Both the position numbers and the translations under genes were made by a program. The notes under the pieces were generated by a model, which saw nothing but the letters and a program-made list of their open reading frames with translations, did not search any database and was not told where the DNA came from. Shown piece by piece: positions 36,851 through 64,000 of a stretch of 64,000 nt of DNA (within the stretch, counting starts at the first letter, position 1; the number at the start of each line of letters is the position of its first letter). The stretch is from Pseudovirgaria hyperparasitica. Taxonomy: Eukaryota. Where the stretch lies: assembly GCA_010093815.1 (NCBI GenBank), contig ML996576.1. One strand, 5' to 3'.

Positions 36851-38254
36851 TTATAGGGGCTGTTCGGGATGTTGCTCGACGGCAATTCTCAGAGATACGA
36901 GACAGGCATCAACGATTTCGTCAAGTTTCGCACGGCTAAGCTGACCAGGATCAGGCCAATCGCCTTTCATCGAGAGGAAAGAGTCAAAGGTGAATTTGGA
37001 CGTCTCCTCGCGAATCCTCTTCTCATCCATATGTTTCCCTGAAGCTTTCAATTCGCATTGCCCGGTGAATTCCTTCTCCCACACATGCCGCGCGGCAATA
37101 CCTGGGAAGTACTTGACAAAGGCCTCCTCAATCGTAAGACTATAGTCTACTGGCACGCGTTCATCGTCCCGTACGATACCTTGGAGGCCATAAAATCGGT
37201 CCCTTGCGTCGGCACACTGGAACGCATTACCTGCCACTATCTGTAGAGCTTTGTGGAATGACCATTTGTCCCAGGGTGTACGCTGTGAGCGTCTATTCTC
37301 CATGTACATCGTGGCAAGAGTCTCAAGGTGACAGCCTGACCTCCCTAGCTTGAAGCCATACGGACGGAGGTCCTCGTCAAGCAGTTGGACAAGACTGACC
37401 ATATCACATAGCATCGGCCATTTGGCACAATGGTCACCCCATAGAACTGTGATAAGAGAACCGGTAGGTGCTAGGAATATCTCTTGGATTATCCACAGGC
37501 GACTCCAGTAGGGTCTTTCAGATATATGTGTGAGTGATGAGAGGAACAGTGTGAGGGCTTGGTCCTCTGGCTTGGCGTGGACCAAAACACATGATAACCC
37601 GCATTCGCCTCCCGGATCATCTTTTGAAACTGTATGATGGTCTGAGAAATTGCTGTTCCCGGATGTAATTTCTTGCGTGACTTCTTGGACAAAGAGTTGA
37701 TCGGGAGAATCTTGCACAGTCATTTTTCTTATCGACGCTATAACACTGCTCAATTCATCATACCGGACATTCAGCACTCTCATGAATGTACGACAGGTAT
37801 TCCATTCTGGATGACAGCCGTGCACTGGCTTAGTTTCACTTTTGATTTCACCGAGCCAGATCAAGATTTCGCTGGCCTGGGAGTATATGTGCTCCATCAT
37901 CTCCACCTGCTGACTTCGCTCCGAGACGTTGCCCTGATCAATACAAAGCTGATCGATCCACAGGTATCCATAGTCCCTGTTCTCTGCCATCTGGAGGAAA
38001 TGGTAAAGATTTTCTCGCACGGTGGTCTTTCGGCCGTTTATGAGGATCTCATGGATGGGGTCTGGTGGGCCCCATGTATAAGATAGAGCACGGTACTCAA
38101 GCTTCCAGAAAAGATCCTTTGGTTTGTTGAACGTAAAGGGCTTGAGGATACATTGTATAGGAAGCACAGCAATGTCGCACGGCCGTCTGGGAATGATTCG
38201 GAGCAGCCTGATGTGATGCACAGAAGCCAAAGGAGTATATTTATACCCACTCAT
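36851..38254 (-). CDS. HET-domain protein (HET-6-like)
   Basis: YKYTPL...IRLLRI, YRALSYTWG, VRENLYHFL, LWIDQLCIDQGNVSERSQQVEMMEHIYSQA, RPYWSRLWIIQEI, CADARDRFYGLQG, VPVDY. Confidence 0.9.
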   Translation of the reverse strand: MSGYKYTPLASVHHIRLLRIIPRRPCDIAVLPIQCILKPFTFNKPKDLFWKLEYRALSYTWGPPDPIHEILINGRKTTVRENLYHFLQMAENRDYGYLWIDQLCIDQGNVSERSQQVEMMEHIYSQASEILIWLGEIKSETKPVHGCHPEWNTCRTFMRVLNVRYDELSSVIASIRKMTVQDSPDQLFVQEVTQEITSGNSNFSDHHTVSKDDPGGECGLSCVLVHAKPEDQALTLFLSSLTHISERPYWSRLWIIQEIFLAPTGSLITVLWGDHCAKWPMLCDMVSLVQLLDEDLRPYGFKLGRSGCHLETLATMYMENRRSQRTPWDKWSFHKALQIVAGNAFQCADARDRFYGLQGIVRDDERVPVDYSLTIEEAFVKYFPGIAARHVWEKEFTGQCELKASGKHMDEKRIREETSKFTFDSFLSMKGDWPDPGQLSRAKLDEIVDACLVSLRIAVEQHPEQPL

Positions 38255-39748
38255 CTTTGCACCGAGCAAACACAGAAGACTGGATAAACACATCGAAGAC
38301 TGGCTATTGTCACAGAATAATTCAGATGATGTTGTATGAGTATGCTGCAATGGTATACAAAACGAGGGGCAAGGAAGGATCTCGGCTGTACCTGCCGATT
38401 GCGAACAAACCAATCCATGGATGAGTTCGACAGGTTCTACAAAACCGAAGAGTTTTCATAGGATCTTAGGAAATGCTTGCCGGATTCGGCCTCGATTCGC
38501 GATTCAGCGCGGATTATTGGCTGGACCTGTATAAACACACTACGACATGCTCTTTGTCATCAATGGCGTGTCAAAATATAATGCGACGACTTACTCTGGA
38601 CAATAGGAAATAATAAGGAGCCTGATCTCTCATACGATGACGACGAGTATCATGCTCGCGTAGGCAGTTTTACGCATATCTCCTCATGCTTCGCAATAGA
38701 CCTATCGTGTTCACGTCCGTAGGGTTGTCGTAGATGCTAGTACTCGGCCATCGACTGTAGCCTTTCTCATGAAGGCGTTCGCGGCTCATAAGTCTTTCGC
38801 GAAGGAGGTCACACTCTCTGCTGCTACTCTGTTGTCGATCGTGGTAGAGGCAATGAGGGATAGCCCTTGCTGAATCTCCATGTCGGGGGCAGCCTGCGGG
38901 CTCCTGGGTTTCTTACACTTATAATGCATGCCCTTTACTCAATTCACCTCCTGGTATTAAATTCATGCCTGCTATGTATTCTATCATGCGTGAAAACCAC
39001 TCATCTGAGTCTTCAGAGTGTCTGCCTGGTGGTGACATTCAGAGGAACTAGTGACTGTGACGAATGCGAGTCGAGCGCCATCGAAATTGGTCTCTACATC
39101 GTCGGTGGGAGCCGTCTCGAAGGACATCGATGTATAGTAGCTTTCATAGTACTACAAATAGACTCATCTCCTAACAGCCAGGATGATCAGGCGCCCAGCT
39201 TCGGCATTCTTCAATTATAGTGAGACTAAGTCGGTAGAGTACACTTCCGGTATGCTATAGGTTTTAAGTATGAGCTGTACATAGCCAGGACCATAATGTC
39301 AATCTATCACCTATCTTCGGATGTAGTAGAGAGCGACAAGGTGAAAATTCTCGCGATCCCGAGAAGGTATGCCAGGCCAGTGGAAAAGGCTTAGATCTGG
39401 CTAGGTGGAGACTTTATGTTGAATCGGACAGCCGAGCTCTTCAAGACTGCAAGGTCAGCTTTTTTTGATTTGGCGAAAATCCTAACACCTAGCCACCCTG
39501 AAGTGACGGAGATCTGCACGATATGAAAACCAAAACAAACCAAACTTATCCTTGTGGGTGGAACTTGGCATTAATTAAGGGGGGAAAATCATCTAAGATG
39601 AAGCGTCGCGTCGGTCGACGTCATGCGCCTCAGCCACGCGGTGGCGCCGGGCAACAGCAGCGTCGTTAGGCTCGAACGCAAATAATTCCTTCGCGTTCAA
39701 CCCCGCCGCCAACAACAACGTCTTCGCCATTTTTCAATCTATACCACC

Positions 39749-44803: not shown

Positions 44804-47800
44804 ATGGATGGATGATTGGATGATTGGATGATTGGATTATGGATTGTATGAAGCTGCTGCTGCTGCCGAGGTCTTTGCACTCTGCCATACTCTGCCCTAC
44901 ACTACACTATCCCACGCAGACATGGCAAAGCTCCATCACAAGAACACCACTCCCCCTCCCCTCCCCTCCCCTCCTCTCAGCCCAAGATCCAAGATCCAAG
45001 ATCTACAATCCAATCCAACAACCCCCCAATCTCGTCGGAACTACCCATCAACAACGCACTACAGCCACACCCAGCACCGAGATACGATACACACAAGGCA
45101 CCAGGCACAAGGCACAAGGCCAATCGCCAATCCGCATCCCAACAAACCTCACCTCCGCGGCATCGGAGCGGCAAACATCCGGTCCCGACCAACCAACCGA
45201 CCGGACAGACAGACAGACAAGCAGACAAACCTACCCACTCATTTTACCCACTCTACCAACAAATCTATCTACCTACCTCCCGAATCTAGTCTCTACCAAC
45301 AACGGCTTTTGTCCCGTTAGCCACAGCAGCCGCCACAGTGGCAGCCACTACCACAACAGCCACAACCACAACGGTCACAGCAGCCACAACGGCCAGAGCA
45401 GCGCTCCCAGCCCCCAGCCCCGAGGACCGCAAACCATGGTTCACAAGACGCGCGCGTAGACAAGATCGTACGATACTCGACAGGTGTGTAACTGTAGTCT
45501 GTCTAGTCTGGTCTACTACGACGACGCTCCGCGGACGGAGAGATTCATACAGTCGGTCCGTCGGTCGGACAGTCGGACATCTCCCCTTGGGATGGTGATT
45601 CTTGATTCGAGGGGGACGTTTATTTTCCTTGAATAATATAATTGTCATGGTCTTTTTTTTGTCTTTAGGGGAGTAGAGGGAAGGGGTCACATGTGTGGTG
45701 GGGCGACGGGTGTGGAAGAGGAAGACAAGGACCAGGACAAGGATGGAGGATAAGGTTAAGTGATGGATAAGGCTAAGGGATCGAGAGTGAGAAATGTGGA
45801 GGACCTGGACGCAAACGATGAATGGTTCAGGCCAGCAGGTCGGGTAACAGAGACAGAGATAGAGACAGATAGAGACATAGAGAGAGAGAGAAAGAGAGAG
45901 AGGCAGAGAGAGCCCAGCATAGGGGATCGATCTGGGGAAAAAAGCGGGTCTTTGTCGCAAATCTGGTACACTAGCAGCCTTGCACGCCTTACGCGATCGA
46001 TTGTGGATACAGTAGTAGTTAAGGCTGGCTCGCCGGGGGGCTATTGGTCACCTCACGATGATTTGGGGCGACGAATTGTCCCAGCCAGGGTCTTTCTGAA
46101 ACGATCCATGGGACGGATGTTAGAAGGGTGAAGTAGTAGCTCGGGAGTCGTACCTCATGGGGAATTTTGAAAGACTAATTAGTGCATAGTCGTGATTCGC
46201 ACCTGAGTGAATCATATTGGATATGGGAGAGAGGTGGTACCGAGGACACCTTCTGATGTCAGTCAGCCTCGCTTCGTGGGTGTGTGTGTGTCCTATGTCT
46301 CTTTTGGATATTGTAATCATCATCGACCGATCGATTGAAGAGATATACTTTGGTGGGCAGGTAGACGGGACGGGTGATCCCCGTGGCTAAGCTGGATACG
46401 GATAATGCAAATAGCAAGACGAAACGTAAATCGCGTATAGCATATAGCAAAAGCAGCAGAAGAGCGTGCGCGTGCCATCTCCTTGCCCTGACTGACTCTT
46501 TGGAATTGTCTATGGGTGGATGCGAAAAGGAGATGGAGGGTCGGGCGCGAGAAAAGGCCGACAGAGGAAAGTTGAGTATCGATGTTTACGCGCGTAGACA
46601 TTAATTGTTCATTCAAGATGCGACGCGCCTTGCATACAGTGTCAGAGGCTGCGTCCGTCTGATGCGCTGGGACGGGCTGGCGGTTCCGCAGAGCCTCCTG
46701 TTTTTACACGTAACGATACTGACTCTTGTCATGATCTCTGACGCTTCGCTTGTGCACTTGTCAGTGTCAGTGTCAGGCAGAGCCTCATCGGCCGAGCTGG
46801 GTATATGCTATCGTGGCCATCAACAGAAAGTTTGGAATGGGGATTGTTGGCCTGTCGGACATGAGTAATTCTCCGATCACCCACACACACGAACACGCGT
46901 ACCATCATCAGCCTCAAGTCGGATTTTCCCTGCCCTCGCTACCACTGGCATCTACTCACCTCCCCCCATCTGACTGTGGGACTTGATAAACCCCCTCCCA
47001 CTCCTTCTCTCCACTCTTTGATAAGCGAGCTCCACCAGCAGCAACGAGATACGATGACCTAGCCAACAAGGTTCCGGCCGCGGACAGGCAGATGGCGTTC
47101 CTGCATTCCCCGTATGGTGGTGCACATCACTCGTCTGGCATACTAGCTAGCTGGCTGGCTGGCTGGTGGGTCTTGTGCATAACACAACATGAAATATACG
47201 ATACCGGTCAACAGCCAGCCCTATTCAGCATGCATGCTGGAATCTCGCCTCGGCCAGTTTTGGGCTGGGCTGGGCTGGGTCCAGGCATGGCGTTGCGTGG
47301 CTTGAGTATTGGTGAGGGGGGAGAAGAGGAGGCAGAGGCAGACAGCCTGGCGGGCTCTGAGGAGTGGAGGCGAGCTGGAACGACCCGCTGACAAGGCTAC
47401 AAGCGCCACTGTGGATTATGTCTATCCGTATACTTGGGTTCTGCTTGCTTTTTGTTTGCTTGCTTTGTTTTGCTGTGTCTGACTGACTGATTATGTACGA
47501 GGGCTGAAAACGACGTGTGGGATGCGTGTGCGGGTTGGAGCTGCGAGCTGCGAGCTGTGAGTCTCGTCACGTCCGGTCAGCGGTCAGTAGTATCTCATGT
47601 CAGGCACCGTCCTGTCAAGTTTGTACGTGCGTAATGTGTGTATATGTCTGCTGCGTGAGTGAGTAAGTTGTGTGGAGTGGATCATGGATTAGACGGGCGA
47701 CGATCACTTAGCTACAGTGAACTGCATGCTGCATTGGAAGTGCGCGAACTGCAATGTTACATAAGCAGGCAGCTTGAGCCCAGGAGGTTAGCGTGCTGCA

Positions 47801-50800
47801 GGCTGCGGGTGTTCCTGCCGCTAATACTGTTTCTGTTCCTGGCCCGTTCCTGGTCATGAACTGATGATAGATTCATGATGGTGATGCGTTTGCGTGCATT
47901 TCCGGTGAGGTGTGCTTTACCCTGGCAGGACTGCAGACTTGACCGTGTCAATCATTGTCTGTACGATGACTACTATACATTTGCAGATATATATCCCGCT
48001 CGTTGCTGACGCTCTTCACCGACACTGATGCTCGCACGGCTGGTGGATGATGGCATGTCATTCTCTGCGTTGGGCCGGATGTGGCATGTGTTTTGGGGAG
48101 GGGGATTGGATGATGGATGATAGGTGATAGATAGTTGATAGATGGTCAGACAGGTACATGGACAGATAACAAGCACGGTCTGGTTCTGGCTGACCGGACC
48201 GACGCGAGTGTGGCCTGTCTATGCAAGACTGCAAGACCTGCAAGACCTGCAAGCCTGAGAGTTGCTATCTATCTGGTGAGCGGCAGTTCGTAAAAATGGC
48301 GCGGACAGTTCAAGGCTTCAAGCTCAGATCGCAAGACCGCGGACGCGCGACAGGGATTGCGGGGGATGGGGAAGGGGAAGGGGAGGGGAGGGGGAGGACT
48401 GGCAAAGGGGCATGATGTGTCCGATCAGATGCAAAAGCAAAAGCAAACGCGATATGGTGGCTGACGAGAAGATCATACGATAGCATCAGAGGGCGCTGGT
48501 CTGGAGCTGGAGCCGGAGCCAGAGCTGGGCCTTGAAAACAGGTGAGTCAAGATTCGGAGGGAAATGGTGGTGGTGTTGAGATCGAGATGTCGGAGGATTG
48601 GCACAGGCATATCCAAGCGGCCGTAGCTATAGCCTATCTACGTCTGCGTGTCCCCGCGAACATTGAGCGAACGATAGGCGGAGAAGAAGCAGACGCAGAC
48701 GCAGATGCAGGACGGATGACTGGGCGGTGCGTGACTGTGGCCGTGACTGTGGCCGGTGAGAGCATATGCAATGTTATGCAGATGTCATGCCATGCCATGC
48801 CATGCGGTGCAATGCCGAGTAGTGCAAAGCGCTCATTTCGCGCAACGGTATGCCAGTCTGCCCAACCTGGGGTCGACCAGCAGAAATCTCGATGGACTAG
48901 CCAGGGTGTTTTCTTTGTTCGCTATCTCGATAACAGGCGGTGGCGCGTCGTTCCGGGTTTGCGCTCCGACCAGATCACCAGAAAGGCAGATTGATACAGA
49001 TGGTGTTGCAGATAGATACATACATCCCGGGTGTGTCTGGTAGCTCGTGAATGGCCATGTAGGTGAAGGTGCATTTGTGCACGTATGTTGAGATCAACTG
49101 ATATTACAATTACAACAACAAGACCGCAGATCTGCGGAGAGTCGGCAGGGTCGAGAACTATAGTTCAGGTGTGAGGCCTAATAATGCCAGGTACGGAATC
49201 AGGTCAGGTACGGTGACTGCTGTAGAGAGAGGTAAGCTCGAGCAGAATCGGCCCTATTATTACAGTTGCTTGAACCACTAACCAGAGCTGGTACCGCTTT
49301 TATATAGATTATAGTGAGCAACTGCGTGATAATCCTGCGAGATATTCTGTACCCCGGACGGACCCTCAGCTCGACCGACGCCGAGTCTAACGTGCACTGT
49401 ATCTCTATGGTAGATAGTTGAATTGCTAGCCGGAATATGGAATTTACACGAGCGCTATGGCACTGTTTGTCCCCAATGGCAGAGCGCGGATATGATATCT
49501 GTCCTCTATCTGTCATCTATCTGCCCCCATAATCGGCCTACAACTCCACTCACTGAGACGATGCTGTTTGACGCGACTCACTGCTCAGTCGGAGAATATG
49601 TATAGCGATAGAGGCCAAGAAATGTGTGGTCATGAACCAGACCAGGGACTGCGTAGTAACAAGTATTTGTGATTGATGTTGCATGATCTGATCGACGAGC
49701 ACCAGGACCAGGAAGGGGACCAGGACCAGGGGGAAGAGAGGACATGCAAGCTGGTGGATCGGCTGAATACCCTCAGATGACGCGTGCAGCAGGTAGTCAG
49801 GTACGAATGCGAATGGCTGTACCTTGGTATCACAGCAGCGTGTGTGTATGGATAGGACGGGTGTGGATCTCTGGAGAGAACAGTTCGTGTACCCACGCCA
49901 GCTGAGGTGAGTAGTAGATCAGGTCATGCCATGTGGGATACCTAGGCGCGCATGATCATGATGAATGGCCGCAACTCACGACACGATGACGCAAGCTGAG
50001 CAGGATAGATGGATAGACATCAGCTTTGCTCTCTCTCGCCATCGCGACAATACGAAGCAAGCTTCGAGACAGACAGCCGGAGCAGCGGCAGGAAAACAGA
50101 CGTAGAAGACGACCGGGGGTGTGTGTATACTGTAATCCCTCAGCAGCCAATCACAAGCACATGGTACCTGTCTCCGAGGCTCTCTCTCTATCAAACTACC
50201 CTGTTTCGGCTAATATAGTTCAACGACATCAGACTAATCATCTCTGGACTCATTAGTTAATTAATTACTTGGAGAATGGATACCTATGCATCCAACCCCA
50301 AGCCAACAAAATCCAGCCAAGCAACAATGCAGCCTGCCCCTGGTCAGAAGATTTTTCCCACGTGTCCATCGAGCGCCACAGTTCACACCGCCACCCTGCA
50401 CTCCGCCATGTCATAATATAACTTTTTTTTTCTTTTTTTTCCCTTTCTTGTCTTGTGTTCTCGTCACGCGCGCGTGCTGACGAGCGACTGACAGGACTGA
50501 CAAATATCTAATTCGTGTTGATATCTGATCCTTTTGATTAGCTGGTGGTCCATGCCGTGGGATGATCGTGTCATTTTCCATCCCAGTCTGTCTACGCTGA
50601 GCCCCCTCGAATGTCGCCCGTTCATAGTAGTCTGTACGGTCTGCGCCAGATGCGCCAGAGATGCCAGTGAGCAGTCAGTGCCAGAAGCGTTGCGTTGGGC
50701 GACACTACATTACACTGTACAGAGTACGGTACCGACAACTTTATTAGTATTAATTAGCAAAGTCATCGCGTGGCTTGGCTTTCTCCCTCTCTCCCTCTAT

Positions 50801-53497
50801 CTCTAGGCGTGTCTCTCTTCATCAAATCTCCAGAGAAATGCACGCATGGGCAGCAAAGAGGCCGAGGCGCGTGTCCTTGCTTTGGGGTCCTAGCGTCGTC
50901 GACACGCACATGGCAATTTGACACCAGTCTCGCCCTGTTGGCTGGATGTATCTATGTATCTCATTGTGGGACTACTCCTCAATGATGCAAACCGATTTAT
51001 GACTCAGTAGGTAGACCCTTCTTTGCCAGGCCAGGCATCTCCCTTGCTTGTCGCGGCGGACACACCGATCGGGACATGGCGGTTATCATTTTGTCTATTA
51101 ATAATTGTTAATATTGCTATCTATCAATTGGAACTGGTACTGATATTGCTACTGTTTCGCCAGACGTCATGTCTCCTCGCGCTCCTTGTTTTGCATTATG
51201 TGTAGTAATCAGTCTCGTGATGCCATTGCATGGAGCGTGGCAAAAACGCCGTGTCCGTTGTCTGTGTGTCGGTCTACCTGCATCACGAGGTCTAACAGGC
51301 GAACTCCTGTTCGTGTCGCACGTTGCGTCGCAGCATGTCGTCTCGTCTCATCTCGTCTCCAAGTAACTAACCTCGTCTGGAATGCCGCTACGTTTGACCA
51401 GCGCGCACAAAAGGGGTCCCGCTCTGTCCTGATCTGTAACCAGCCGGGCGTGCGCGTCTCCGGAAGGGATGAATGGACGGATGGCTGGAATGAAATGGAA
51501 GCGCTTCTCGAACGGCGGCAGAAGACATGCCGGACGGACGGGGCGCGACTTGTTGATTAATTAATTAGACGATAGACAGCTAGAAAGTTTCAGGCTTGCT
51601 TCTCCCAACCTATTCCCGTTGGTCGGTGCCAAGGGGGACGTGTTGACTCTCTCTATCGCGCAGAAAGGAAAGGGGAAATTAGGTGCCCATTTGCCACACT
51701 CACACCGACGCACGCCGCAACACAAGAAAAAACGGTCATTAGGTTGCAGAACAGATCAAGCGCACGCTTTGGGCAATCTGATGCCCGAAAGGATGTTCTT
51801 GGGTGCTTCTTAGCCGCGCGCTCGCACACACACGCCCTATCCAGGGAGGACCAGGACAAAGATAGACTTTTTCCCTTATTCTTTTTCGGCGCTTGCTTGA
51901 CCGCAGTCCCACAGACAATTTTAGCATTTTTGTTGTTGTTGGGGACGGGGATGGGGATGGGGATTAGCAGGGGGAGGAGGAATCTTACCATTATGTTTTC
52001 CTTTCCTTTTTCCTTGTCTTTTTTTTTTCTTTTCATTCTGTGAATCATAATCATACCCATAATCATACTCATCATAATCGTATTGGGATTCCCAGCACAG
52101 GGATGGGCCATGTGCGACAGCGCTCGTTTCGCGAGCAAATGGGCCGATCATTTCTTGTTCCTGGCCCGTCCTTGACGACGCGTCAACGTACGCCCCAGAA
52201 ATGGAATGGGCGCTAGCCTTGCGGGTAAGTGCCTAGGTATTCTTAGCTAGGTTACAGTGTATCTCCAAATGAGTTAGCAGTAGTAGTAATTAGAGGTTAG
52301 TAGTCAGGAGGAGTAGTGGTAGTAAGTAGGTGTGGCGGACGCCGGCGTCAAAAAACAACAAGGAACGAAGCGTGCCTTGCGTGCCAGCGTGCCAGCAGTG
52401 CCAGCTTTGTGGTGTGTGTGTGTGTGTATGTGTCCCTCACCGCCACAGCCTGTCAAGTCTCATGTTTCTGGTTTCCTGTTCCTGCTGTGTTTTACCGCTG
52501 CGGTATATCGGATTTTTTTTGGCCGTCTGGCCTGGCTCTCCCATACTCTCACATGAGAATGGGGACTACTATCTGTCTGGATGTACGGAGAGTTATGAAC
52601 CACAGGACTGTTAATACCACCCAACCCCCCAACAGCAAGCCATAGCATCCACACCTGGATGTTCCGACCCAAGTACCGGCTCCTGGAGTCTGGAGAGATG
52701 GCCGATTGCGATGATCGGAGAGCGCTAGCATCATCATCATCATTCAAACACACATTTCAGTTCAGGTGGTCATGGTTATTTTTGACGCTGGAAAGCTAAG
52801 ACCCCGGCCAGAACAGAGCTGAGAGGAAACCAGGGGGGAGGGAGGGTGTGTATGCTCGGTGTTGTCGCAGGCCGCCCAAACAAATCAGCCGACCACCGCG
52901 GGCGGAGATGAAACGGGGGTGGGGGGTGAATGATGGAGGAATTATCAGGATGCGCACACACACATACACACACATACACACACACATATATGCTGGAACG
53001 GTGACGGCGACGGTGACGGTGACGGGCGATGGATGGGCGATGGGCGTTCGGCGCATGCACCGCCCAGGGACAAGCTGCCTCTGCTTCTCTCTGCCTCTGC
53101 CGCCAGCCTTGTCACATCCCTCCCTCCCTTGCGCTCCACCGGCAAGCCCCAAGCCATCAATCTCTCCTTTCTCCTTTTCCACGTCTGCCTTTTGCCTGCC
53201 TGCGTGTGTGTGCGTGTGTACGTATGTGCTTGTGCCTGTGCTTGTGCCTGTCTGTGCCTGTACCTGTGCGTCTGCGTCTGCGTACGTACTGTAACTCAAC
53301 GCCGCCCCGCTCTGTCTGCTCACTCACCTCACACCTCAACGCAGACCAGGGGGGGCCCCCCCTCCCCCTCTCCCCTGTCTGCACTTCTCACGATCCGAGC
53401 CTGGATGACTGTGTATGACATGTTCTGCAGTTCCACCAAGCCCTGGCTAACTAAACTATTTCCTTTCTCAACTCACTTTCTTCTCCGAATCTCCCTA

Positions 53498-53505
53498 CAT
53501 AAATA
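53498..53505 (+). promoter_or_regulatory. TATA-like box CATAAATA upstream of the micro-ORF
   Basis: Lies in a CT-rich block (53460-53530) about 150 nt before ATG 53653, the usual filamentous-fungal core promoter layout. Confidence 0.45.
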
Positions 53506-53652
53506 CCCCCAAGCCGCTCCCCTCTGCTGACACGTATTCTGCTCGATATCCAACGACCAATTCGGCCACGACTCTATTACACAGTCCTCTTTGCTACTTA
53601 ACAGTACGACTCTCGACACACACTGTCAGTCAACCAGCTTCTTCACATAAAC

Positions 53653-53736
53653 ATGATGTCTACAATGTCCGTATCTCAACTGCCGCCTCCTCCAGGCCCT
53701 CCGCCAACAAGGCCTCTACCAGCAATCCCAAAGTAG
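53653..53736 (+). CDS. Candidate 27-aa proline-rich micropeptide MMSTMSVSQLPPPPGPPPTRPLPAIPK
   Basis: ATG in AAC-ATG context and in-frame ATG in ACA-ATG-TC context; ten Pro codons with mixed third positions (CCG/CCT/CCA); RPLPxxP SH3-ligand consensus; TAG 53734-53736. Confidence 0.6.
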   Translation: MMSTMSVSQLPPPPGPPPTRPLPAIPK

Positions 53737-55956
53737 GGCCTGGCATACAATACTACATACACACATACGCCAACCAAACCTGATCTACAACCACTACATC
53801 ATCTCCCTCTATCGGCCATCTCCAAGTCACTCCTACAGTTATACGACTACTTAGACCCGGATACACCAAAGTGGCCTCTACTCTTCATCAACCACCACGC
53901 CTTTTACCAAAGACAAACCAAAAAAGCAACATGAATCGATAAAAGCCTATTCTCACACCCATCCAATCCTCCAATCCGCGCAAAACAGCAGCATAACAGC
54001 AACAAAATCGTATCGAGATCCAAATCAAGCAACAAGCTTTCGAACCAAGCCACGCATATGGTAGTGCACGAATCAGCACTCACCCACGCCTCGCTCCCAG
54101 CATGCCTACCTATGCGACTCGAAAACAGACACCACATGGCAAAACTCTCATAGCGCGCCCGTCCATCAAACGTTCGAAAAGCTTAAAAACGTTCTAGCAG
54201 CCTTCCAATGCTCTACGACTCGCGAACGTCAGGTGCAGCAGTTGCGAGTAATGGGCTCTTTTCATCGTTCGCGCTGCCTCATCGGGTCTTCCGTGCGCGC
54301 GTTCAATCAAACTTAATGTAGCGCTATTTGCTATTACGGCGTGTGCACGTACCACGTTTGGCGGCCTGAGGCTACTTGCTTGCTTGCTGCGCTCTACCTC
54401 CCACACCTACCTATACCAACAGCAACGACACCTTTCATGACGACGACCACATTACCCTTCCGAAAGACCCGCAGGATCGGCCTCTCTCGCTGTATTCTCA
54501 TACACATACACATACACATACAAACAACATCAATACACATACACGCACACAACACACCCTTGTACAACAAACAACAAACCAACAACAAAACACCATTGTA
54601 ATATCCCAGCGCTTTTCCCACCCTCGTCCCCCTTACCGTTATGGACTCAAGAAGATCGCCAACACACAGTGTTCGGCATGTAATGCATTTTCACTGGCGC
54701 AACTCGGGTGATTGTTTTATTGAAATGGTTTTTCTATACCTAGGCTAGGGGACGATGACGATGAGCCTCAAGGGCACTCACGGGAGAGGTTGGTGGATCT
54801 GATGTTAGATTATATATATACCCTGAATTGATTTACCGATTTTCTTTACTTTTTTTTCACTTTTGCTTGGGTGCTGTGATCGAGGTTTATTGTGATAATA
54901 TGGCATGCTTGTATGCCATGCTTCTTTCTTTGCCTATCTACCATGCTCGTTCCCATGCAACCATCCACGCCCCCGTATCCCTACCTCATGCATTACACAT
55001 CCCCTGCACCCGTACACCACACAAACCCCCAGCAATCGTATACTGTACCATCCACGCACCACCACGCAGTCTCATGCTCGTCATGCAGCATGCTCATCAT
55101 CATAACCCCTCGCATTAGGGCGGCGCTTCTCTCCAACTGCCAAGACACTTTATCCCTGCCCTGTCCTGTCCTTTGGAAGAAGCATAGCCGCAGCCAACTG
55201 ATACAACCAAAGTAAACGAAAATAATGGCTGTGTTATGCTGGGATTGTGTTTGTTTCTGTAGCCGCTGCGTGGATATATATGGATGGACGGATCGTGGTT
55301 TCGGTCGAACTGTGCCGCAGCGATGCGTGAGTGGGGATTTTTGGCGGCTGCTATTTACTGTCTATGCACTTACTGCTATTTCAGTAGCTGGTTGCGCGGC
55401 TCTATTGCTGCTGCAAATGCACTTCGCCATCCATACATCCCTACATCCACACATCTATCCAGCTGCCAGTCATCATGCGTCCAGTACCTCATGTAATGCA
55501 ACATGCAAATGCAGTCATTGCCCTTTTGGCATTCGTAATTTCTGCTGCACCCTGCCAGGTACATCTGTACTCCACCCTCGCTGCACCCTCACTCCACCAT
55601 CCAGTCATCCATCTATTCCTCGTCCATCCCTCAGCCATACATAATCCCAGCTGCCCTGGTCGCTATTATATCATATTATATTATATTCTATCATGTTACC
55701 CCGCGCTGCTCTGCTCACGCGTCTGCCCGGTTGCTATCTATGCTGAATCTCCATGTCTATAAATCTATATCAATGATTATCCGAATCCATGCTTATCTTC
55801 ATCCCTACAGGCTCACCCACGCCCGCATTACGAACACGTCCACGTCCACATCCACGTCTACATTACGACCACCTTCAAGAACACACCCACGCACGCCATT
55901 GCGTTTGGTCGTCGTCAGCTGTATGTTTTATACTGTGCGTTGTATATTATATATTA

Positions 55957-56116
55957 TATACTGTCTGCTCTATACTGTCTGCTCTATACTGTCTGCTCTA
56001 TACTGTCTGCTCTATACTGTCTGCTATATACTATCTGCTATATACTATCTGCTATATACTATCTGCTATATACTATCTGCTATATACTATCTGCTATATA
56101 CTATCTGCTGTATACT
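55957..56116. repeat. 14-bp minisatellite, 11 copies (TATACTRTCTGCTV)
   Basis: 4x tatactgtctgctc, 1x tatactgtctgcta, 5x tatactatctgcta, 1x tatactatctgctg, plus partial tatact. Confidence 0.95.
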
Positions 56117-58338
56117 TCTACGGTACCCTTAATGCTGTACAGAGTATACTCCATACTGTACACCGCATCCTCTGTCCCCCGTCCCCTAGTCAGTATCCTC
56201 CATCCTGCACACAGTATACCTTATACCAACCCAAAACGGGTATATGCGCGCATCCGCCTCCGCCGCTGCCGATTCTGGACTTACCAGCCAAATGAATGAA
56301 TTGGATGGATGCATTGGACAAGCCACCGCCACCGCCACCGCCACTGCCACTGTCAATGCCATGGACACGGGCACGGGCACGGGTATTGGCATGAGCATGG
56401 GCATGGGTACTGACCCATCTCGTGTCATCTTCTCCTCTTGGCCTCGTGTCATCTTTTCGTGCTCGTGTTCTTGTCTTGTTTTTGTTCTTGTATTGTCCTT
56501 GTTTTGTCGAGGTACGCGGGCATACATGCACGTATTGCGGGGATGGAGGGGCCGGGGACACGTAAGGATTGAGGGGCAGCAGGATTGAGAATTGTAAGGA
56601 TGTGAGCATGTGAGCATGTGAATCCAGCATGATGTTTTGGTGGATTGTGGGGAGGGGCCACGCATGGATATACCAGGCTTCGTGATGTGATGTGATGTGA
56701 TGGTGGGGGTGCTTTGTTGATTTGGATGCGAGGGGCTGGCATGGGCAGCATGGGTGAGGGGAGGTAGGATAAGATAGGATAAGGCAAGGGGAGGTAGGAT
56801 AAGGTAGCATAAGGCAAGGCAAGGACAGCCTTGTGGATGGCCATGTCTATGACGCTGTCTTACCACTCACTGAATATGGGCTGAGCATTGGGTACTTAAG
56901 TAGGTAGGTACAGTGTCGTGTTGTTGGTGGTTTGATTGAGTAAGTGGTTGTGTTGTTGGCGATTCAATCAAGTGAGTCGTTGCGCGGTAAGTATGTTTTT
57001 GTGTTGTTTGTGATTCTTTCATGGATTGAGTGATGTATAAGACATGCCTTGCGCTTTGTGATTTGCTATATACAACACCAAGACGCTTAAATTTACTACT
57101 GTCCTTGTATGTATGTATTCGTGATTTGTTGCTAGCCTGTCCATCCTCCAGCCTTTCTTACTTACTTGCTTGCCTCTTCTTCGTCTTAATAATCCGCTCT
57201 CTTCCGTTGCCTTCATTCTACACCACTACCAGCAATAATTCCAAAACACCGCCGCATGTACGAGCGAAGGCAGGGACTAGGGGATTCTTATCTTTAACTG
57301 CCCTGTCAATAACCTGCACATATATATGGTTCCATGGTATTGTAAGACACGGCAACGTGCTGTCCTCATGGCATCGCATGGTATGGTGGCTCGTGGCGGG
57401 ATGCTGTGTATAGACAGGGGTGCATGTCCTTGACCTGGACTTTGACCCTGCCCTTGCATGTGCAGACAGATAGATAGACAGACAGGCAGGCAGGTAGGCA
57501 GGTGTGTCGGATGCAGTCTACACGCTTTTCGCGCCGCTACCGCTGCCGTCCAGTTACCACGAGGCTGGGTGAACATCCGTTTCGGATATCGAATGATATC
57601 ACGTACTTACTTGCGCGCCCAGCCGGCAAGAAAAGAAGAAAGCAAGGAAGTACGGATGTCGAGAACGGCACTGCTTTGGAGTACAACATGCTAGGCCGCT
57701 GATACGAATCGAGTGTTGTTATGGCTTAGAAGCTTAGAGGTTTAGAATCTTGGAGACTTGGAGACATGGGGTGAGATAGATGGAATCTCATCAGTAGTGA
57801 ATTACTGCGGGATACTGCGAGTAGTGGGCTGGATATGGGTCCTTGTGACTTTATGTACAGTATGGTATTGAAAGACCTTTCGTCCATTCGGATCTATGCT
57901 GACATCTGCAGGAGTATCTGCATTCTACATTCCTCGCCAATTCATGATGCTATATTCGTAAAGCACGAATGGAGACATAAACTAGCCGACGAACCGAAAG
58001 GGTAAACACACGAGCTTCATATCCGGAGTGATGTTGCTGGTGTTGTTCTCGTCGAGGAAAGGTTCGATCTGATGCGATTCACATGTGCGACGTATGATGG
58101 AGGAGAGGAAGTTACGATGTTCAGACAGCTACAGCTACAGCAGCAGGGATCGCGAGATGTTCCACCTATCAAAACATAATACAGTGAAGGGTTCCCCGCG
58201 TTCTTCGTCAGCTCTCAGTGTACTTTATTGTGATCTATCTGAGGTCGTGAATGCTGCGCGGTCGGTCGTCAGCGATTGTCGTTATACGCTGACTGACTTC
58301 AGCTCCGGCCAATCGTGCCAGTCCACCATTCCTCGACA

Positions 58339-59990
58339 ATGGCCTCCTCGGAACCATTCTCGTTTGACTCACCTCGCGAATCCGCCGTAAAAGGGGCTCT
58401 GCGCTCCGACTTCTTCTACGGATACGCAACTGCGGCCTCCCAAGTCGAAGGCGCTTGGAACGTTGATGGCAAGGGAGAATCCATCTGGGACACATTCGCG
58501 CACGCCTCACCGTCTCGAGTCAAGGATGAATCTACTCCAGACGATGCAGTCCGCTCATACCATCTCTACAAGGACGACGTCAAGCTCTTGAAGAGCTATG
58601 GCGTGAACGCATACCGCTTCAGCCTTTCATGGAGCCGCATCATCCCCCTTGGCGGCGCCAACGATCCCGTCAACGAAAAAGGCATCGAATACTACAACAA
58701 CCTGATCGACGAGCTCCTTGCGAATGGCATCACGCCCTTTGTCACGCTCTTCCACTGGGATATGCCCCAAGCCCTCGAAGACCGCTATTGCGGCATGCTC
58801 AACCAAGCCGCCTACACGCCAGACTTCCTCCGCTACGCCGCCCTCTGCTTCACCCGCTTCGGCGACCGCGTCACGCACTGGATCACCTACAACGAGCCAG
58901 GCGTCTACGCCCTCGCCGGCTACGCTGCCGGCGTCCACGCGCCCTCCCGCTCCTCCTTCCGCGACCGCAACCCAGCCGGCGACTCCTCCACCGAGCCCTT
59001 CATCGTCGCCCACACTCAGCTCGTCACCCATGCCCGCGCTGCCCTACTCTACAATTCCACCTTCGCCCCGGTCCAGCACGGCTCCATCGCCATCACCCTC
59101 CACGGAGACTACTCCGCCCCCTGGGACCCGTCCTGCCCGCTCGACACCGCCGCCGCCCAGCGCGCACTCGAGTTCGAAATCGCCTGGTTTGCCGACCCGC
59201 TGTACGGCTCCGGCCCCGTCGCATATCCGCCTTCCATGCGCGCCCAGCTCGGCGCCCGGTTGCCGGACTTCACCCCCGAGGAGCGCCAGCTCGTGCGCGG
59301 CAGCTCCGCCTTTTACGGCATGAACACGTACACAACCTTCTATGTGCGGCATCGCGTCGAGCCACCTGACATCACAGATCATAGCGGGAATATTGAAAAG
59401 TGTGACCAGAACAGAGCGGGTGAGAGTCGGGGTCTGGAGACTGATACGGCGTGGCTGCGCGCGTGTCCGTGGGGCTTCCGCGCGCTGTTGAGGTGGATAT
59501 GGGCGCGGTACAAGGTGCCCATCTATATGACCGAGAACGGTACGACGGCGCAGGGCGAATGTAGTGATGGTAGTGGAGCGCCGGAGACGAGCGTGCTGGA
59601 CGATAGCTTCCGCGTGCAGTTTTTCAGGGACTATCTGACGGAGCTTGCCGAGGCGGTACGCGACGATGGCGTCGACGTGCGCAGCTACTTTGCGTGGACG
59701 TTTACGGATAATTGGGGTGAGTGCATTCAATCTCCTTGCCGCCAAAATCGGGGGGAAGGCAAGATATAAAGTGGAAATGTTGTGCTGACCTGATGCCAGA
59801 ATGGGCGGCCGGCTTCACGGATCGGTTCGGGGTCACGTTTGTCGACTTTGAGAGCGCGGAGAAGACACGGTATCCGAAACGCTCGGCGTACTTTTTGCGC
59901 GACTATTTCGGTCATTTGATCCGGGAGGCGCGGGACGAGGGAGTGGGGGAGGAGGAGGGTGATAGGAAGGGAGACATGAGTATTGAATGA
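58339..59990 (+). CDS. Glycoside hydrolase family 1 beta-glucosidase, intracellular, 2 exons
   Basis: FFYGYATAASQVEGAW, AYRFSLSWSRI, TLFHWD, catalytic TYNEP and MTENG, SYFAWTFTDNW|EWAAGFTDRFG (intron 59717-59799); no signal peptide. Confidence 0.96.
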
Positions 59991-60820
59991 CCTTCGGAGC
60001 AATTTTGGTTCAAACCTCAGGTACGTAGGGAAGCAAACCGTGAAAAAAGGGGATGTATGGCGTTCCAAATCGTCTTTCTCGTCCTCTGCACACTGACACC
60101 GTCATCGCGGCAATAGACATGTGAAATCAAAACTCCAAAAGCCTGCCTTGCCTCAAAATCTCGACAATGCACCCTGCCCACCTGCTGGACCGTTAGAACC
60201 CATTTAGCCTGAAGGACCTTGTAAGGAGAATCATCAGATTAAGACCTGACTACCCATGGGCGTATAGGGAACCCGTAACCCAAATCTTCCAGAACCAAGT
60301 CCCTTCAACGATAACGTATAACACGCGGATATATCGCGCGCGCCCGCGCATATCGGATGCACTACATCTCAAGCAGAACAGACTGTTCAGATAGCGTATG
60401 GACGGGAAAATCTCAACCCCGCAAATGATCCCTGTGCCGAGCATCGCGGTCGTGTAACACCGTGCTGCTAGTCTGGTTGTACATGCCGGGGCTTGCGGAA
60501 GATTCTGTATGACCTGCCTGCGAGAAGGGGTATATGTGATGTGGTCTTTTAGGGTTGACGGATGCGGAGACGCGGAGTTTTGTTTGCTACAATAGTGGAC
60601 TGGCGCTTAGTTTTAGAGAGCGGCCATTGCTTTCTGCTCAGTACGTTGGACGTGTGTTGGATTTTCATCTTGTATGAGTGGTGATTTTGGAATTGCATCC
60701 CGCGTTCTTTTGTGTCTAGAAGAGCAAGTTGAGACAGGTAGGTAATTTGACCACACTCAATGCGTCGAAGCAACGACTTCGCTAACATAATCCCAGACAC
60801 CCAGATAACTCAATCCCAAG

Positions 60821-62464
60821 ATGCGAGAAATCAGGCAAGCCATGGACCGCGGCGTCTCGGCGGCGGAGGAGAAGTTCAGCGCAGTCCACGTCGAAGAAGT
60901 CGTAGTACAGCGCATCACAGAGGAAGACCTCATGAACCTGTCCCGCCAGTCCATGAACATGCGCTCCCTAACCGGCCTGCGTATCTGCGGCGTCATGCTC
61001 GTGCAAGGCTGCAACCAAGCCGGCTACGGGGTCGACTGGGCGGTCATCGGCGGGATCAACGCATTTCAGCTCTGGCACGACTACTTCGGCTTCGGGACGA
61101 GCGGGGGCACGTTTGGGACGATCAATGCGCTGATGAGGATTGGGACGGTGTGCGGCGCGCCGTTTCTGGCGCTCTCTGATGTGATCGGGCGGCGCGGGGT
61201 GAGTTTTTTGGGGAATTTTATTGTGTTGGCTGCGGCGCTTATGCAAGGACTGGCGACGAATATGCCGACGTTTATGGCTGGGAGGTTTTTTCTGGGGTTT
61301 GGGTCGGCGCTGATGTCGAGTCCGCAGTACATGGCTGAGGTTGCGCCGGTGCATCTGCGTGGACGGCTGGTTGGTATCTTTGGCGCGTGCTTCCAGGTTG
61401 GCAGTATGGCGATGAATGCTGCGTTGATTGGGTTCTCGACTATTGGCAGTCACTGGGCTTGGAGGATTCCATTGATCCTCGAAGGCTTGTTTCCGTTGAT
61501 CGTCTGCTCGCTCATATATCTCATTACTCCAGAGTCACCCCGATACTTGGTACAGCGAGGGAAACGCGAGGAGGCAAAGAAGGTTATCGCGAGATACCAG
61601 ACCACGTCTGGCTCGGTGGACGAGCCAATCGTCGCGCTGATTCTGGCGCAGATCGAAGAATCGCTCGAGACGACTCGGACAAGTTTCAAGGCGGCCTGGG
61701 ACTTTCGAGTCTTCGCGACTTCGATCGTACGCTACAGACTTCTTGTCCTCGTCCTATACTCCTGCTTCCAGTCCTGGAACGGGGGCTCGATCGTGTCGTA
61801 CTATTCTACGCCAGCTTTGGAAACGGTCGGAATTACAAAGAGCATCGACCAGCTAGGCATCAATCTGGGGCTTACAGCGACGTACTTCGTTTTCACGTCG
61901 ATAGGCGCATTCCTGGTTGACAAGTTCTGGCGACGCACTCTCATCTTTGCTGGCCTCGTATCCGTCATCACCATGCAGACGCTCGCGACTATAACTTCCT
62001 GGCAGTACTCTGTCACTGGATCCAAGGCCACGTCAGTACTGACCATCGTTTGGATGTTTATCTTCCAAGTCTGTTCTGCACTCTTCATCGCCACAATGCA
62101 CAATCTCTATCCCGTAGAAATCCTGTCGCTTCCGCTGCGCGCAAAAGGGATGGGCCTCTATGGTCTGATTCAAGGTGCGGCAGGCGCTATTGAAGCATAC
62201 GGCATCTCCATCGGGATAGCAAAGATTGGGTACAAGATCTGGACAGTATACATTGCGTACAATTTGTTTCAGCTCATAGCTGCATTCTTTGTGTTTCCGG
62301 AAACGAGCAATCTGAGTCTGGAGGAGATTGATGCTGTATTTGAGACTCCAGGCGTTCACCCGGTGAAGATGAGCATGTCCATCCAAAAGGGTAGAAAAGA
62401 GCGGATGAGGATGATGGAGTCTGTCCGTGGCGACGATGGCGAAGCTGCTACTGCTATACAGTAG
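60821..62464 (+). CDS. Sugar-porter family MFS permease (lactose/cellodextrin permease-like)
   Basis: SDVIGRR, GRFFLGFG, YMAEVAPVHLRG, WRIP, PESPRYL, YPVEIL...RAKG, FPETSNLSLEEID motifs; probable 5'UTR intron ending 60796. Confidence 0.92.
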   Translation: MREIRQAMDRGVSAAEEKFSAVHVEEVVVQRITEEDLMNLSRQSMNMRSLTGLRICGVMLVQGCNQAGYGVDWAVIGGINAFQLWHDYFGFGTSGGTFGTINALMRIGTVCGAPFLALSDVIGRRGVSFLGNFIVLAAALMQGLATNMPTFMAGRFFLGFGSALMSSPQYMAEVAPVHLRGRLVGIFGACFQVGSMAMNAALIGFSTIGSHWAWRIPLILEGLFPLIVCSLIYLITPESPRYLVQRGKREEAKKVIARYQTTSGSVDEPIVALILAQIEESLETTRTSFKAAWDFRVFATSIVRYRLLVLVLYSCFQSWNGGSIVSYYSTPALETVGITKSIDQLGINLGLTATYFVFTSIGAFLVDKFWRRTLIFAGLVSVITMQTLATITSWQYSVTGSKATSVLTIVWMFIFQVCSALFIATMHNLYPVEILSLPLRAKGMGLYGLIQGAAGAIEAYGISIGIAKIGYKIWTVYIAYNLFQLIAAFFVFPETSNLSLEEIDAVFETPGVHPVKMSMSIQKGRKERMRMMESVRGDDGEAATAIQ

Positions 62465-62638
62465 GTTTTAGCGGGATAGGCTATGTCAGACTTCTCGGGT
62501 GCGTTGTTTGCAGTCTGAGTATTGCGACTTGTATCGAAGTAGTGATATTGATCACATTCATTCGTTCTCGACCTTAGTCACGGCCCCTTATGTAGTTCTC
62601 CAAGCTATCGGAATAGGAGACTGCTAACTCCGTCCATC

Positions 62639-64000
62639 TCAGATGATTTTAATTGTGCAGGAATGTGTCCGTCTCCTCCCTCTCTCAAGCCACTCGGTCG
62701 TGTCGGACGTTTCCGCAAAGCCACGGCAGCTCTGCATGAAGGAAGCCATGCTGCGCTTCTGATCGTACCCTTTTATGGCAAGATCTGGACCAGGGTTGAT
62801 CCAAAAGACACCTAGCCTGCGGTATTCGCCTTTGGACAGCGTCCTCTGCAACATAAGCCCGGCTGTGATCCATCCGCCTGGATGTATGTATGCATCGCCG
62901 ACGAGAAAGAAGTACACGCCTGGAGACATTGTGTCGGTCGGACTGTCGAACTGACACGCGATTACAAACTCGCCATCGGAGTATCGGTCTGCTCTGCCGT
63001 TGAGGAAGTCGTTGCGTGGGTTCGGTAACGGGTTCACTTTCTGGTTTGTGAGCGCTCCGTCGAGGCATATGTGCCCTTTGGAAACTTGTCCGAAAGGATC
63101 GTCTGTGTCTTTTTGTGTGAAAACCTCGATGACTTCTGCCTTATACGACGGGAAGGGCGTGTCTTGCAATTCTACTACCATGTCGGGCCTGCTCTTGTTT
63201 GTGTCAGGAAAGTCCAACGTGGCGCTGATGGAAGCCCAGGACCAAGTAGGCGTCCCTGAAGCAAGTCTTCTTCTCGAGCCACCACCTCGCCATTGCAAAT
63301 ATGTTTTCCAGAGCAGTGATATAGGCAGGTCAGCCTTCCACATTCCGGCGAAATATTCCGATGCGCTACCAAACCTACGAGCTACGCCCGAGATTGCAAT
63401 CAACTTATCCTTCTCCTCGAAAGATAGAGCACATTCACTATATCGTGCCATGATCGTACGCCACGTTGAACCTGGCTCAAGCTCCGCCCGTTCCGATCTT
63501 CGATCAGCCTTGATATCACTCTGTAGCATCCAAGGGGTGTGTGACACGCTGGACACGGGAGCCTGCGGTATGAAGGTGATGTGCTCGCTGTGGGACAAGT
63601 CATGCTCAGGATACTGTTCACATGCTCTCGAAGAACGACATTGCCAGTAAAGCTGATCTTGATCGAAATACAAGATGCGAGGAGCCAGTGCGAGCTCCTG
63701 AACGACCCAGCCACGTCGAATTATCGGTCCTTCAGCTACTTTACGACTCCAGATGTCTGCTGTGATGCAGAAGAATGCCGACGTAACCCCTGAACTTTCC
63801 ATGACGTTGACATAACAAGGTTCGATGGCAAGTGTGTTTCGGGTGGTGAATAGACTGTGTTCATAGCTATCGCTGTTGTTTGCTGCAATATTACACAGCG
63901 CATTCCGGTAAAAGTCTCCCATATAGACCGATTCCGCTGCCCAGTCTGACGCGGAGTCTTGCATGATACAGAGACAATCTATCCATATGTACCTATAGCC
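62639..64000 (-). CDS. HET-domain protein, 5' end outside window
   Basis: GYRYIWIDCLCIMQDSASDWAAESVYMGDFYRNALCNIAA, RRGWVVQELALAPRIL, YSECALSFEEKDKLIAISGVA, YFAGMW, PTWSWAS. Confidence 0.9.
   Translation of the reverse strand, partial: GYRYIWIDCLCIMQDSASDWAAESVYMGDFYRNALCNIAANNSDSYEHSLFTTRNTLAIEPCYVNVMESSGVTSAFFCITADIWSRKVAEGPIIRRGWVVQELALAPRILYFDQDQLYWQCRSSRACEQYPEHDLSHSEHITFIPQAPVSSVSHTPWMLQSDIKADRRSERAELEPGSTWRTIMARYSECALSFEEKDKLIAISGVARRFGSASEYFAGMWKADLPISLLWKTYLQWRGGGSRRRLASGTPTWSWASISATLDFPDTNKSRPDMVVELQDTPFPSYKAEVIEVFTQKDTDDPFGQVSKGHICLDGALTNQKVNPLPNPRNDFLNGRADRYSDGEFVIACQFDSPTDTMSPGVYFFLVGDAYIHPGGWITAGLMLQRTLSKGEYRRLGVFWINPGPDLAIKGYDQKRSMASFMQSCRGFAETSDTTEWLERGRRRTHSCTIKII

Follow-up and report, generated by a model that had tools for sequence, protein, structure and literature searches.

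An unspliced transcript of about 1.3 kb carries a candidate proline-rich small ORF in Pseudovirgaria hyperparasitica

Can a reading frame of only 27 codons, whose predicted product is nearly all linear motif, constitute a gene of its own? This question is raised by a small ORF on the plus strand of a 64,000-nt stretch of Pseudovirgaria hyperparasitica DNA (hereafter, the window). The ORF is located in an ORF-poor stretch of approximately 46–58 kb that contains no long reading frame, and the initial annotation of the window had proposed here a stand-alone micropeptide gene with a 3′ UTR of ~1.1 kb. Its coordinates and reading were reproduced exactly: the ORF begins with the ATG at 53653 and closes with a TAG stop codon at 53734–53736, and the 27 codons between the two limits of the feature (53653–53736 with the stop) encode MMSTMSVSQLPPPPGPPPTRPLPAIPK.

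The small ORF contains three in-frame ATGs, at 53653, 53656 and 53665. As had been claimed for two of the three, the first (ataaacATG) and the third (tctacaATG) carry an A at position −3. After this cluster, the next ATG is found at 53931, 266 nt further on. The ten proline codons of the ORF are a mixture of CCT (four), CCA (four) and CCG (two), with no CCC, and Tandem Repeats Finder (score ≥30) called no repeat over 53680–53733. The proline stretch is therefore not a simple repeat, which bears out the earlier argument from the varying proline codons.

Two motifs make up most of the predicted peptide. A polyproline core, LPPPPGPPPT (53680–53709), includes the sequence PPPPGPPP, and is followed directly by RPLPAIP (53710–53730; residues R20–P26 of the 27-aa peptide). 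Class I SH3 ligands are typified by the Src-type consensus RPLPPLP, and in yeast a motif of this kind in Pbs2 binds Sho1. RPLPAIP fits the class I pattern [RK]xxPxxP residue for residue, so that the SH3-ligand motif claimed for the peptide is present as a sequence pattern. The six reading frames of the window together contain 127,996 codons, in which RPLPxxP occurs once, as the RPLPAIP of the small ORF; the looser [RK]xxPxxP pattern occurs 84 times, by composition alone. The motif match makes the 27-aa peptide a candidate class I SH3 ligand, and a motif match is not in itself binding. Known class I SH3 ligands are embedded in larger proteins and have a defined partner; in the 27-aa peptide, by contrast, little is left besides the motif. 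A search of PDB chain sequences with the 27-aa peptide returned no matches.

Evidence of transcription came from the contigs of two public sequencing runs, designated X1 and X2, which belong to one sample of one study and for which the kind of nucleic acid is unrecorded; our run search found none with a recorded RNA kind that carried this stretch. The contigs were aligned to positions 46000–63000 of the window, and the long pieces differed from it by no more than one letter. Nine joints were present in the aligned contigs, eight of which were intron-sized skips of 47–96 bases. Four of these had GT..AG ends and fell in genes for a GH1 beta-glucosidase and an MFS transporter; the other four, with CT..AC ends, fell at 46–56 kb. 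Because the contigs splice out intron-type skips at neighbouring genes, we consider that X1 and X2 stem from RNA of this organism, and that this RNA was spliced. Parts with low or no cover, such as 52804–53370 in X2, were left out as evidence.

Over the small ORF, the X1 contig (1287 nt) was colinear with positions 53558–54839 with a single differing letter, and the X2 contig (1230 nt) was colinear with 53610–54839 with none; neither contained a gap. The small ORF and its stop codon were intact in both contigs, and none of the nine joints fell within 53558–54839. An unspliced RNA of about 1.3 kb, colinear with the genome, thus carries the small ORF, and 53558–54839 is its minimum covered extent. 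This is nearly the same span as the transcript that had been predicted at ~53550–54900. Amongst the outcomes that would overturn it, the initial annotation had also named the case in which the ORF is only one exon of a longer spliced CDS. Since the contigs are colinear with the genome, the dominant form is unspliced and is not such an exon; contigs lose rare variants, and minor spliced forms could escape detection in this material.

The word depth of the contig carrying the small ORF was 1818 in X1 and 675 in X2, compared with 194 and 97 for the GH1 contig, and 4–56 for three other RNA contigs at 46–53 kb, far below the small-ORF contig. Contig depth cannot rank genes, and X1 and X2 were selected by matching this very stretch, so we take the high depth as a hint of transcript abundance and not as a measurement.

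The sequence on either side of the transcript was consistent with a transcription unit on the plus strand. A CT-rich block, a feature of strong fungal promoters, lies upstream of the transcript at 53460–53496, and is followed by the TATA-like element CATAAATA at 53498–53505, ~53–60 nt upstream of the contig start at 53558. Together, the two elements occupy the region 53–100 nt upstream of the low-coordinate contig end, and are ~155 nt upstream of the ATG, close to the ~150 nt given previously. At the high-coordinate end, TATATATATA (54811–54820) is situated 19–28 nt before the shared contig end at 54839, and resembles a yeast-type 3′-end efficiency element. A T-rich run at 54840–54868, visible in the sequence and in the Tandem Repeats Finder output, lies directly beyond the contig ends. 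TATATA followed by a T-rich run is the layout of yeast-type 3′-end signals, and the two elements lie in the 3′-end-like T/TA zone that had been described at ~54800–54900.

Given the CT block and TATA-like box at the low-coordinate end of the contigs, and the TATATA and T-rich sequences at the high-coordinate end, the transcript is very probably on the plus strand, a reading taken from these sequence signals. The X1 and X2 contigs both end at 54839 without a loose end. As both runs come from one sample, the shared end points only weakly to a true 3′ end.

On the plus strand, the covered stretch begins with an AUG-free leader of at least 95 nt (53558–53652), and no ATG is present over 53423–53652. 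The predicted fold of the leader and 5′ part was no more stable than that of shuffled sequences (z −0.74). The first AUG ORF of the transcript is that of 27 codons, which starts 95 nt into the covered stretch. The stop codon is followed by a body of 1.1 kb (53737–54839), which is A/C-rich and G-poor and includes a CATACA microsatellite at 54499–54556, detected by Tandem Repeats Finder. Downstream frames reach at most 54 aa from an ATG and at most 113 aa from stop to stop. The longest other ATG ORFs in the transcript are of 54 aa on the plus strand and 77 aa on the minus strand (53904–54137). C makes up 31.7% of the transcript, A 29.3%, T 22.5% and G 16.5%.

Pfam returned no match for the peptide, for the 65-aa read-through frame or for the 54-aa ORF, and gave a chance-level match for the 77-aa minus-strand ORF (E 0.22). 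The only Rfam match over the transcript at E≤10 was a chance match to SNORD97 (E 6.3) at its 3′ edge, and no repeat or transposon copy touched the transcript. The RNA is therefore >200 nt in length, contains no ORF of ≥100 aa and matches no known protein or structured RNA, the properties by which lncRNAs are operationally recognized. It also carries an intact ORF that scanning ribosomes could reach, which is the property expected of a micropeptide gene, provided that the strand has been correctly assigned.

The small ORF is embedded in a stretch with further transcripts. RNA contigs at 46742–47321, 49084–50037 and 51116–52569 are spliced on the minus strand, with CT..AC introns at 46851–46901, 49499–49553 and 51896–51988, and the longest minus-strand ATG ORFs of these three contigs are 38, 61 and 121 aa in length, respectively. 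A fourth CT..AC intron is located at 55310–55373. The stretch from 46 to 56 kb looks like a cluster of non-coding-type transcripts. A minisatellite at 55905–56128 consists of ~16 copies of a 14-base unit (CTGTCTGCTCTATA / CTATCTGCTATATA). At 55461 and 57641, contigs of both runs leave the window sequence and continue with unlike letters; these loose ends could reflect distant splice partners or strain differences. The ninth of the joints, in an X1 contig, connects 47166 to 55835; it skips 8668 bases, its ends are TG..AA and one of its sides is only 23 bases long, so that this contig is probably a chimera formed at low-complexity sequence.

The genes of the window, as identified by Pfam, encode HET-domain proteins, the GH1 beta-glucosidase, MFS sugar transporters, a Pex2/Pex12 RING protein, isoleucyl-tRNA synthetase and ABC transporters. 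The two HET-domain (heterokaryon incompatibility) ORFs are both on the minus strand, at 36851–38455 and 62639–64000. The transcript studied here lies between a Sam37/DnaJ-X side at about 40–43 kb and the GH1/MFS side at 58–62 kb. A scan of 30 larger ORFs across the window revealed no SH3-domain gene. The RNA contig of the GH1 gene starts ~1.9 kb upstream of the ATG at 58339 (56415–58338, with an intron at 57864–57910), and for this 5′ extension there are two readings, a very long leader and a merger of two transcripts. In the RNA contigs, an 83-base GT..AG intron (59716–59798) is also removed towards the 3′ end of the GH1 gene. The C-terminus of the corresponding GH1 protein record (P0001, 476 aa) is therefore probably wrong, as the record follows the unspliced frame.

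We next consider whether the small ORF exceeds what chance would produce. When the transcript was shuffled 5000 times by mononucleotides, 1691 of the shuffles had a first-AUG ORF of at least 27 aa. The [RK]xxPxxP pattern was found in the first-AUG ORF of 116 of the 5000, and ten or more prolines in 15, by a procedure that ignores the local C-rich patches of real fungal DNA. Such frames are commoner in the actual sequence of the window than in the shuffles. Four proline-dense 9-mers (at least seven prolines in nine residues) occur in the six frames of the window, at 1458 (plus), 53680 (plus; the small ORF), 56317 (plus) and 59958 (minus), and all four are in short non-coding frames. Amongst the 101 ATG ORFs of 20–60 aa in 46000–58300, with the small ORF counted, three contained the motif and two had ten or more prolines.

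At 56296–56391, in non-coding DNA, a further short ATG ORF also contains a run of prolines (MNWMDALDKPPPPPPPLPLS...), and this example indicates that proline-run frames arise by composition in this genome. It should also be noted that the small ORF was picked after reading 64 kb, and for this reason the ORF alone is not significant. We conclude that it exceeds chance only in part: by length it does not, and by content it does partly. The codon-usage log-ratio, in which the usage of the window was compared with the trinucleotides of the 3′ body, was −6.6 bits in the frame of the ORF. The small ORF has no intrinsic coding signal, and the codon bias of the organism is weak anyway.

Searches for relatives used as protein query the 44-aa stop-to-stop frame at 53602–53733, which encloses the 27-aa peptide. 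The homologue search amongst proteins of 24–77 aa gave no candidate, and the search amongst longer proteins gave 32 candidates, none at E≤10. HMMER comparison of the 44-aa frame with 1.84 billion representative sequences gave no matches at E≤0.001. A degenerate DNA pattern for PPGPPPxRPLPxxPK matched three loci in metagenome contigs, all of which were chance matches without related flanks; the contigs were of 59–69% GC, and one of the matches had a stop inside the motif.

The neighbouring GH1 gene (58339–59715) provides a measure of how far such searches could reach. Its best non-self relative was 74% identical, and the named relatives, at 69–72%, were from Pleosporales, Leotiomycetes, Orbiliomycetes and Eurotiales. 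Because the best GH1 relative is only 74% identical, the organism has no close relative in the protein collection, and it seems to belong to a sparsely sequenced lineage. The blank peptide searches carry little weight: a short, low-complexity query was used, close relatives were out of reach, and ORFs of 27 aa are rarely called as genes.

The explanation that we favour, with roughly even confidence, is that the locus gives rise to an lncRNA-type or proto-gene transcript, and that its small ORF is translated at some level into a young or unselected peptide. The locus would be a transcription unit of its own, producing an unspliced, mRNA-like Pol II RNA of ~1.28 kb without a conventional coding frame. 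The CT block and TATA-like box are upstream of it, its leader is AUG-free for at least 95 nt, and the TATATA and T-rich flank are found at the place where the contigs end. Ribosomes loading on this RNA would, by the scanning rule, start at the AUGs at 53653, 53656 or 53665, and the product would be a proline-rich peptide of 23–27 aa. This peptide is most likely a young or unselected by-product of C-rich sequence, in which case the function of the locus, if any, would reside in the RNA itself or in its transcription. The small ORF is probably scanned by ribosomes; the strand, the true ends of the RNA, translation and the lack of selection on the peptide are what we infer from the evidence above.

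The lack of a known Pfam or Rfam family and of a coding signal is consistent with an lncRNA-type or proto-gene transcript, as are the high C content of the RNA and the three other proline-dense non-coding frames of the window. The presence of at least three other transcripts without long ORFs in the surrounding 12 kb raises the prior for a non-coding RNA. Several observations point the other way. A first AUG ORF behind an AUG-free leader, with clustered in-frame ATGs, fits a true small-peptide gene, and the proline codons are mixed and non-repetitive, with a proline content that few of the shuffles equalled. The contig depth would be high for a typical lncRNA, although depth cannot rank genes, and a tiny ORF followed by a long 3′ UTR is already described for the a-type pheromone genes of this fungal group (PMC3068285).

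It is possible, but doubtful, that the locus is instead a true micropeptide gene, in which the 27-aa peptide is all that the mRNA encodes, with whatever function that peptide may have. The peptide would in this case be a free linear motif, offering RPLPAIP to SH3 domains and/or PPPPGPPP to profilin, GYF and WW domains, and would either compete with the proteins that these domains normally bind or act as a bridge between them. The 1.1 kb 3′ UTR would control stability or localization of the mRNA, as is proposed for a-type pheromone genes.

In favour of a micropeptide gene, the first AUG ORF follows an AUG-free leader, has A at −3 and three in-frame starts, and is intact with its stop codon in the RNA contigs. 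The proline codons are mixed without a tandem repeat, RPLPxxP recurs nowhere else in the six frames, and the high contig depth is a further hint. Against these points, the protein and metagenome searches yielded no relative (weak evidence with a short, low-complexity query), the ORF has no codon-level coding signal, and composition explains much of its proline content. The peptide also has no signal peptide, cysteine or processing site of the kind typical of known fungal peptide classes. The original proposal of a stand-alone micropeptide gene with a ~1.1 kb 3′ UTR has accordingly held in part: the RNA is unspliced and its first AUG ORF is the small ORF, with no longer one after it, but the codon statistics show no coding signal.

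Two described systems offer precedents for a micropeptide gene. Young human microproteins with proline-rich motifs were reported in 2023 to pull down SH3 proteins (PMC10032668). They resemble the peptide studied here in being very short, disordered and proline-rich products of non-canonical ORFs, in having an SH3-type motif as their sole recognizable feature, and, as far as the searches here could reach, in their lack of deep conservation. The human microproteins come from uORFs, and are described there with translation supported by Ribo-seq and SH3 pull-down by peptide array; the peptide studied here is known from sequence and RNA contigs. Unlike those microproteins, it belongs to a filamentous ascomycete, and its ORF is alone on its transcript. 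Fungal microproteins are acknowledged as under-studied in a review (PMC11413187), and our search of the literature on SH3-motif micropeptides and fungal small ORFs found no fungal stand-alone SH3-ligand micropeptide.

The second precedent is provided by the a-type (CaaX) pheromone genes of Pezizomycotina, in which a tiny ORF is described as being followed by an unexpectedly long 3′ UTR; the examples given include mfa-1 of N. crassa, mf2-1 of C. parasitica, MF1-1 of M. grisea and ppg2 of S. macrospora (PMC3068285). The transcript studied here shares with these genes, as they are described in that source, a 5′-proximal tiny ORF and a long 3′ UTR, and comes from the same fungal subphylum. Unlike the a-type precursors, the predicted peptide has no C-terminal CaaX box and no cysteine.

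A more specific version of the micropeptide gene, in which a strongly transcribed stand-alone gene supplies a competitor or adaptor for SH3 or polyproline-binding domains, is in our view unlikely. The same low probability applies to its proposed targets, which would be SH3, profilin and GYF modules that serve the actin cytoskeleton, endocytosis or signalling. As elongation through a PPPPGPPP-type sequence needs eIF5A, the output of the peptide could, on this version, also report the eIF5A or polyamine state of the cell.

One special case of the lncRNA-type reading, and an improbable one, is that the transcript is a regulatory ncRNA which acts in cis or in trans on nearby genes for sugar use. 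The GH1 gene (58339 onward) and an MFS gene (60821 onward), both assigned by Pfam, are on the same strand 3.5 kb downstream, spliced contigs over both genes were present in the same runs, and long ORFs are absent from the transcript. The RNA is connected to these genes only by its proximity to them and by their shared occurrence in one sample, however; the depth of contigs cannot show co-regulation, and the Rfam search revealed no sequence relation to a described RNA. The precedent is HAX1, an lncRNA described as promoting cellulase expression in Trichoderma reesei (PMC5865335, PMC6948969). Like HAX1 as it is described there, the RNA studied here is a Pol II transcript of a filamentous ascomycete without a conventional coding frame and near genes for sugar or cellulose use. 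A sequence relation to HAX1 is not expected, and any function here is putative; unlike HAX1, the RNA studied here has a well-placed first-AUG ORF.

There is also a slim chance that the RNA is transcribed from the minus strand, in which case the plus-strand ORF would be irrelevant. The contigs carry no strand information, all four introns mapped at 46–56 kb are CT..AC, i.e. on the minus strand, and the 77-aa ATG ORF at 53904–54137 is on that strand. Nevertheless, promoter-like signals are positioned upstream of the low-coordinate end, the TATATA and T-rich flank are at the other end, and no 3′-end-like signal is found near 53558–53610. In a minus-strand RNA, TATATA would sit inside the transcript at +20, and the sole AATAAA would be at position 119. 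The Pfam match of the 77-aa frame, as stated above, was no better than chance.

It is most improbable that the small ORF merely opens a longer CDS as its first exon. The sequence GTAGGG spans the stop codon at 53733–53738, with a GT after CCAAA at 53733–53734, and minor spliced forms are conceivable in contigs that drop rare variants. Both contigs are nevertheless unspliced through 53733–53738 with no joint inside the transcript, the downstream frames are short (≤54 aa from an ATG and ≤113 aa from stop to stop), and the protein searches described above found no longer protein sharing sequence.

Other candidate classes were rejected on their defining features. An a-type pheromone precursor is excluded by the absence of cysteine and by the C-terminus AIPK, which leaves no CaaX box. 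The 27 residues contain one copy of the motif, no KR site and no hydrophobic signal segment, contrary to an alpha-type or Kex2-processed precursor. A uORF of a protein-coding mRNA was dismissed, as no downstream ATG ORF exceeds 54 aa within 53737–54839; so was a metallothionein; and so was a fungal telomerase RNA, as the CCCTAA template is absent from either strand and there is no Rfam match beyond the chance one to SNORD97.

Small-ORF transcripts of lncRNA type and linear-motif microproteins are both known kinds, and the locus is a new candidate of these kinds with bounds given by RNA. It is neither a discovery nor an established gene. The RNA and the reading frame are real; production of the peptide, its conservation and its binding to SH3 domains are putative.

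Should the peptide be produced and bind SH3 domains or similar proline-recognition domains, the locus would be a rare fungal gene that encodes only a short linear motif, and would offer a simple handle on how short linear motifs compete inside cells. On the likelier reading, as an lncRNA-type or proto-gene transcript, it would be a clean, well-bounded, mRNA-like fungal transcript without a conventional coding frame. The locus represents a good test case for the translation of small ORFs and for escape from nonsense-mediated decay in fungi.
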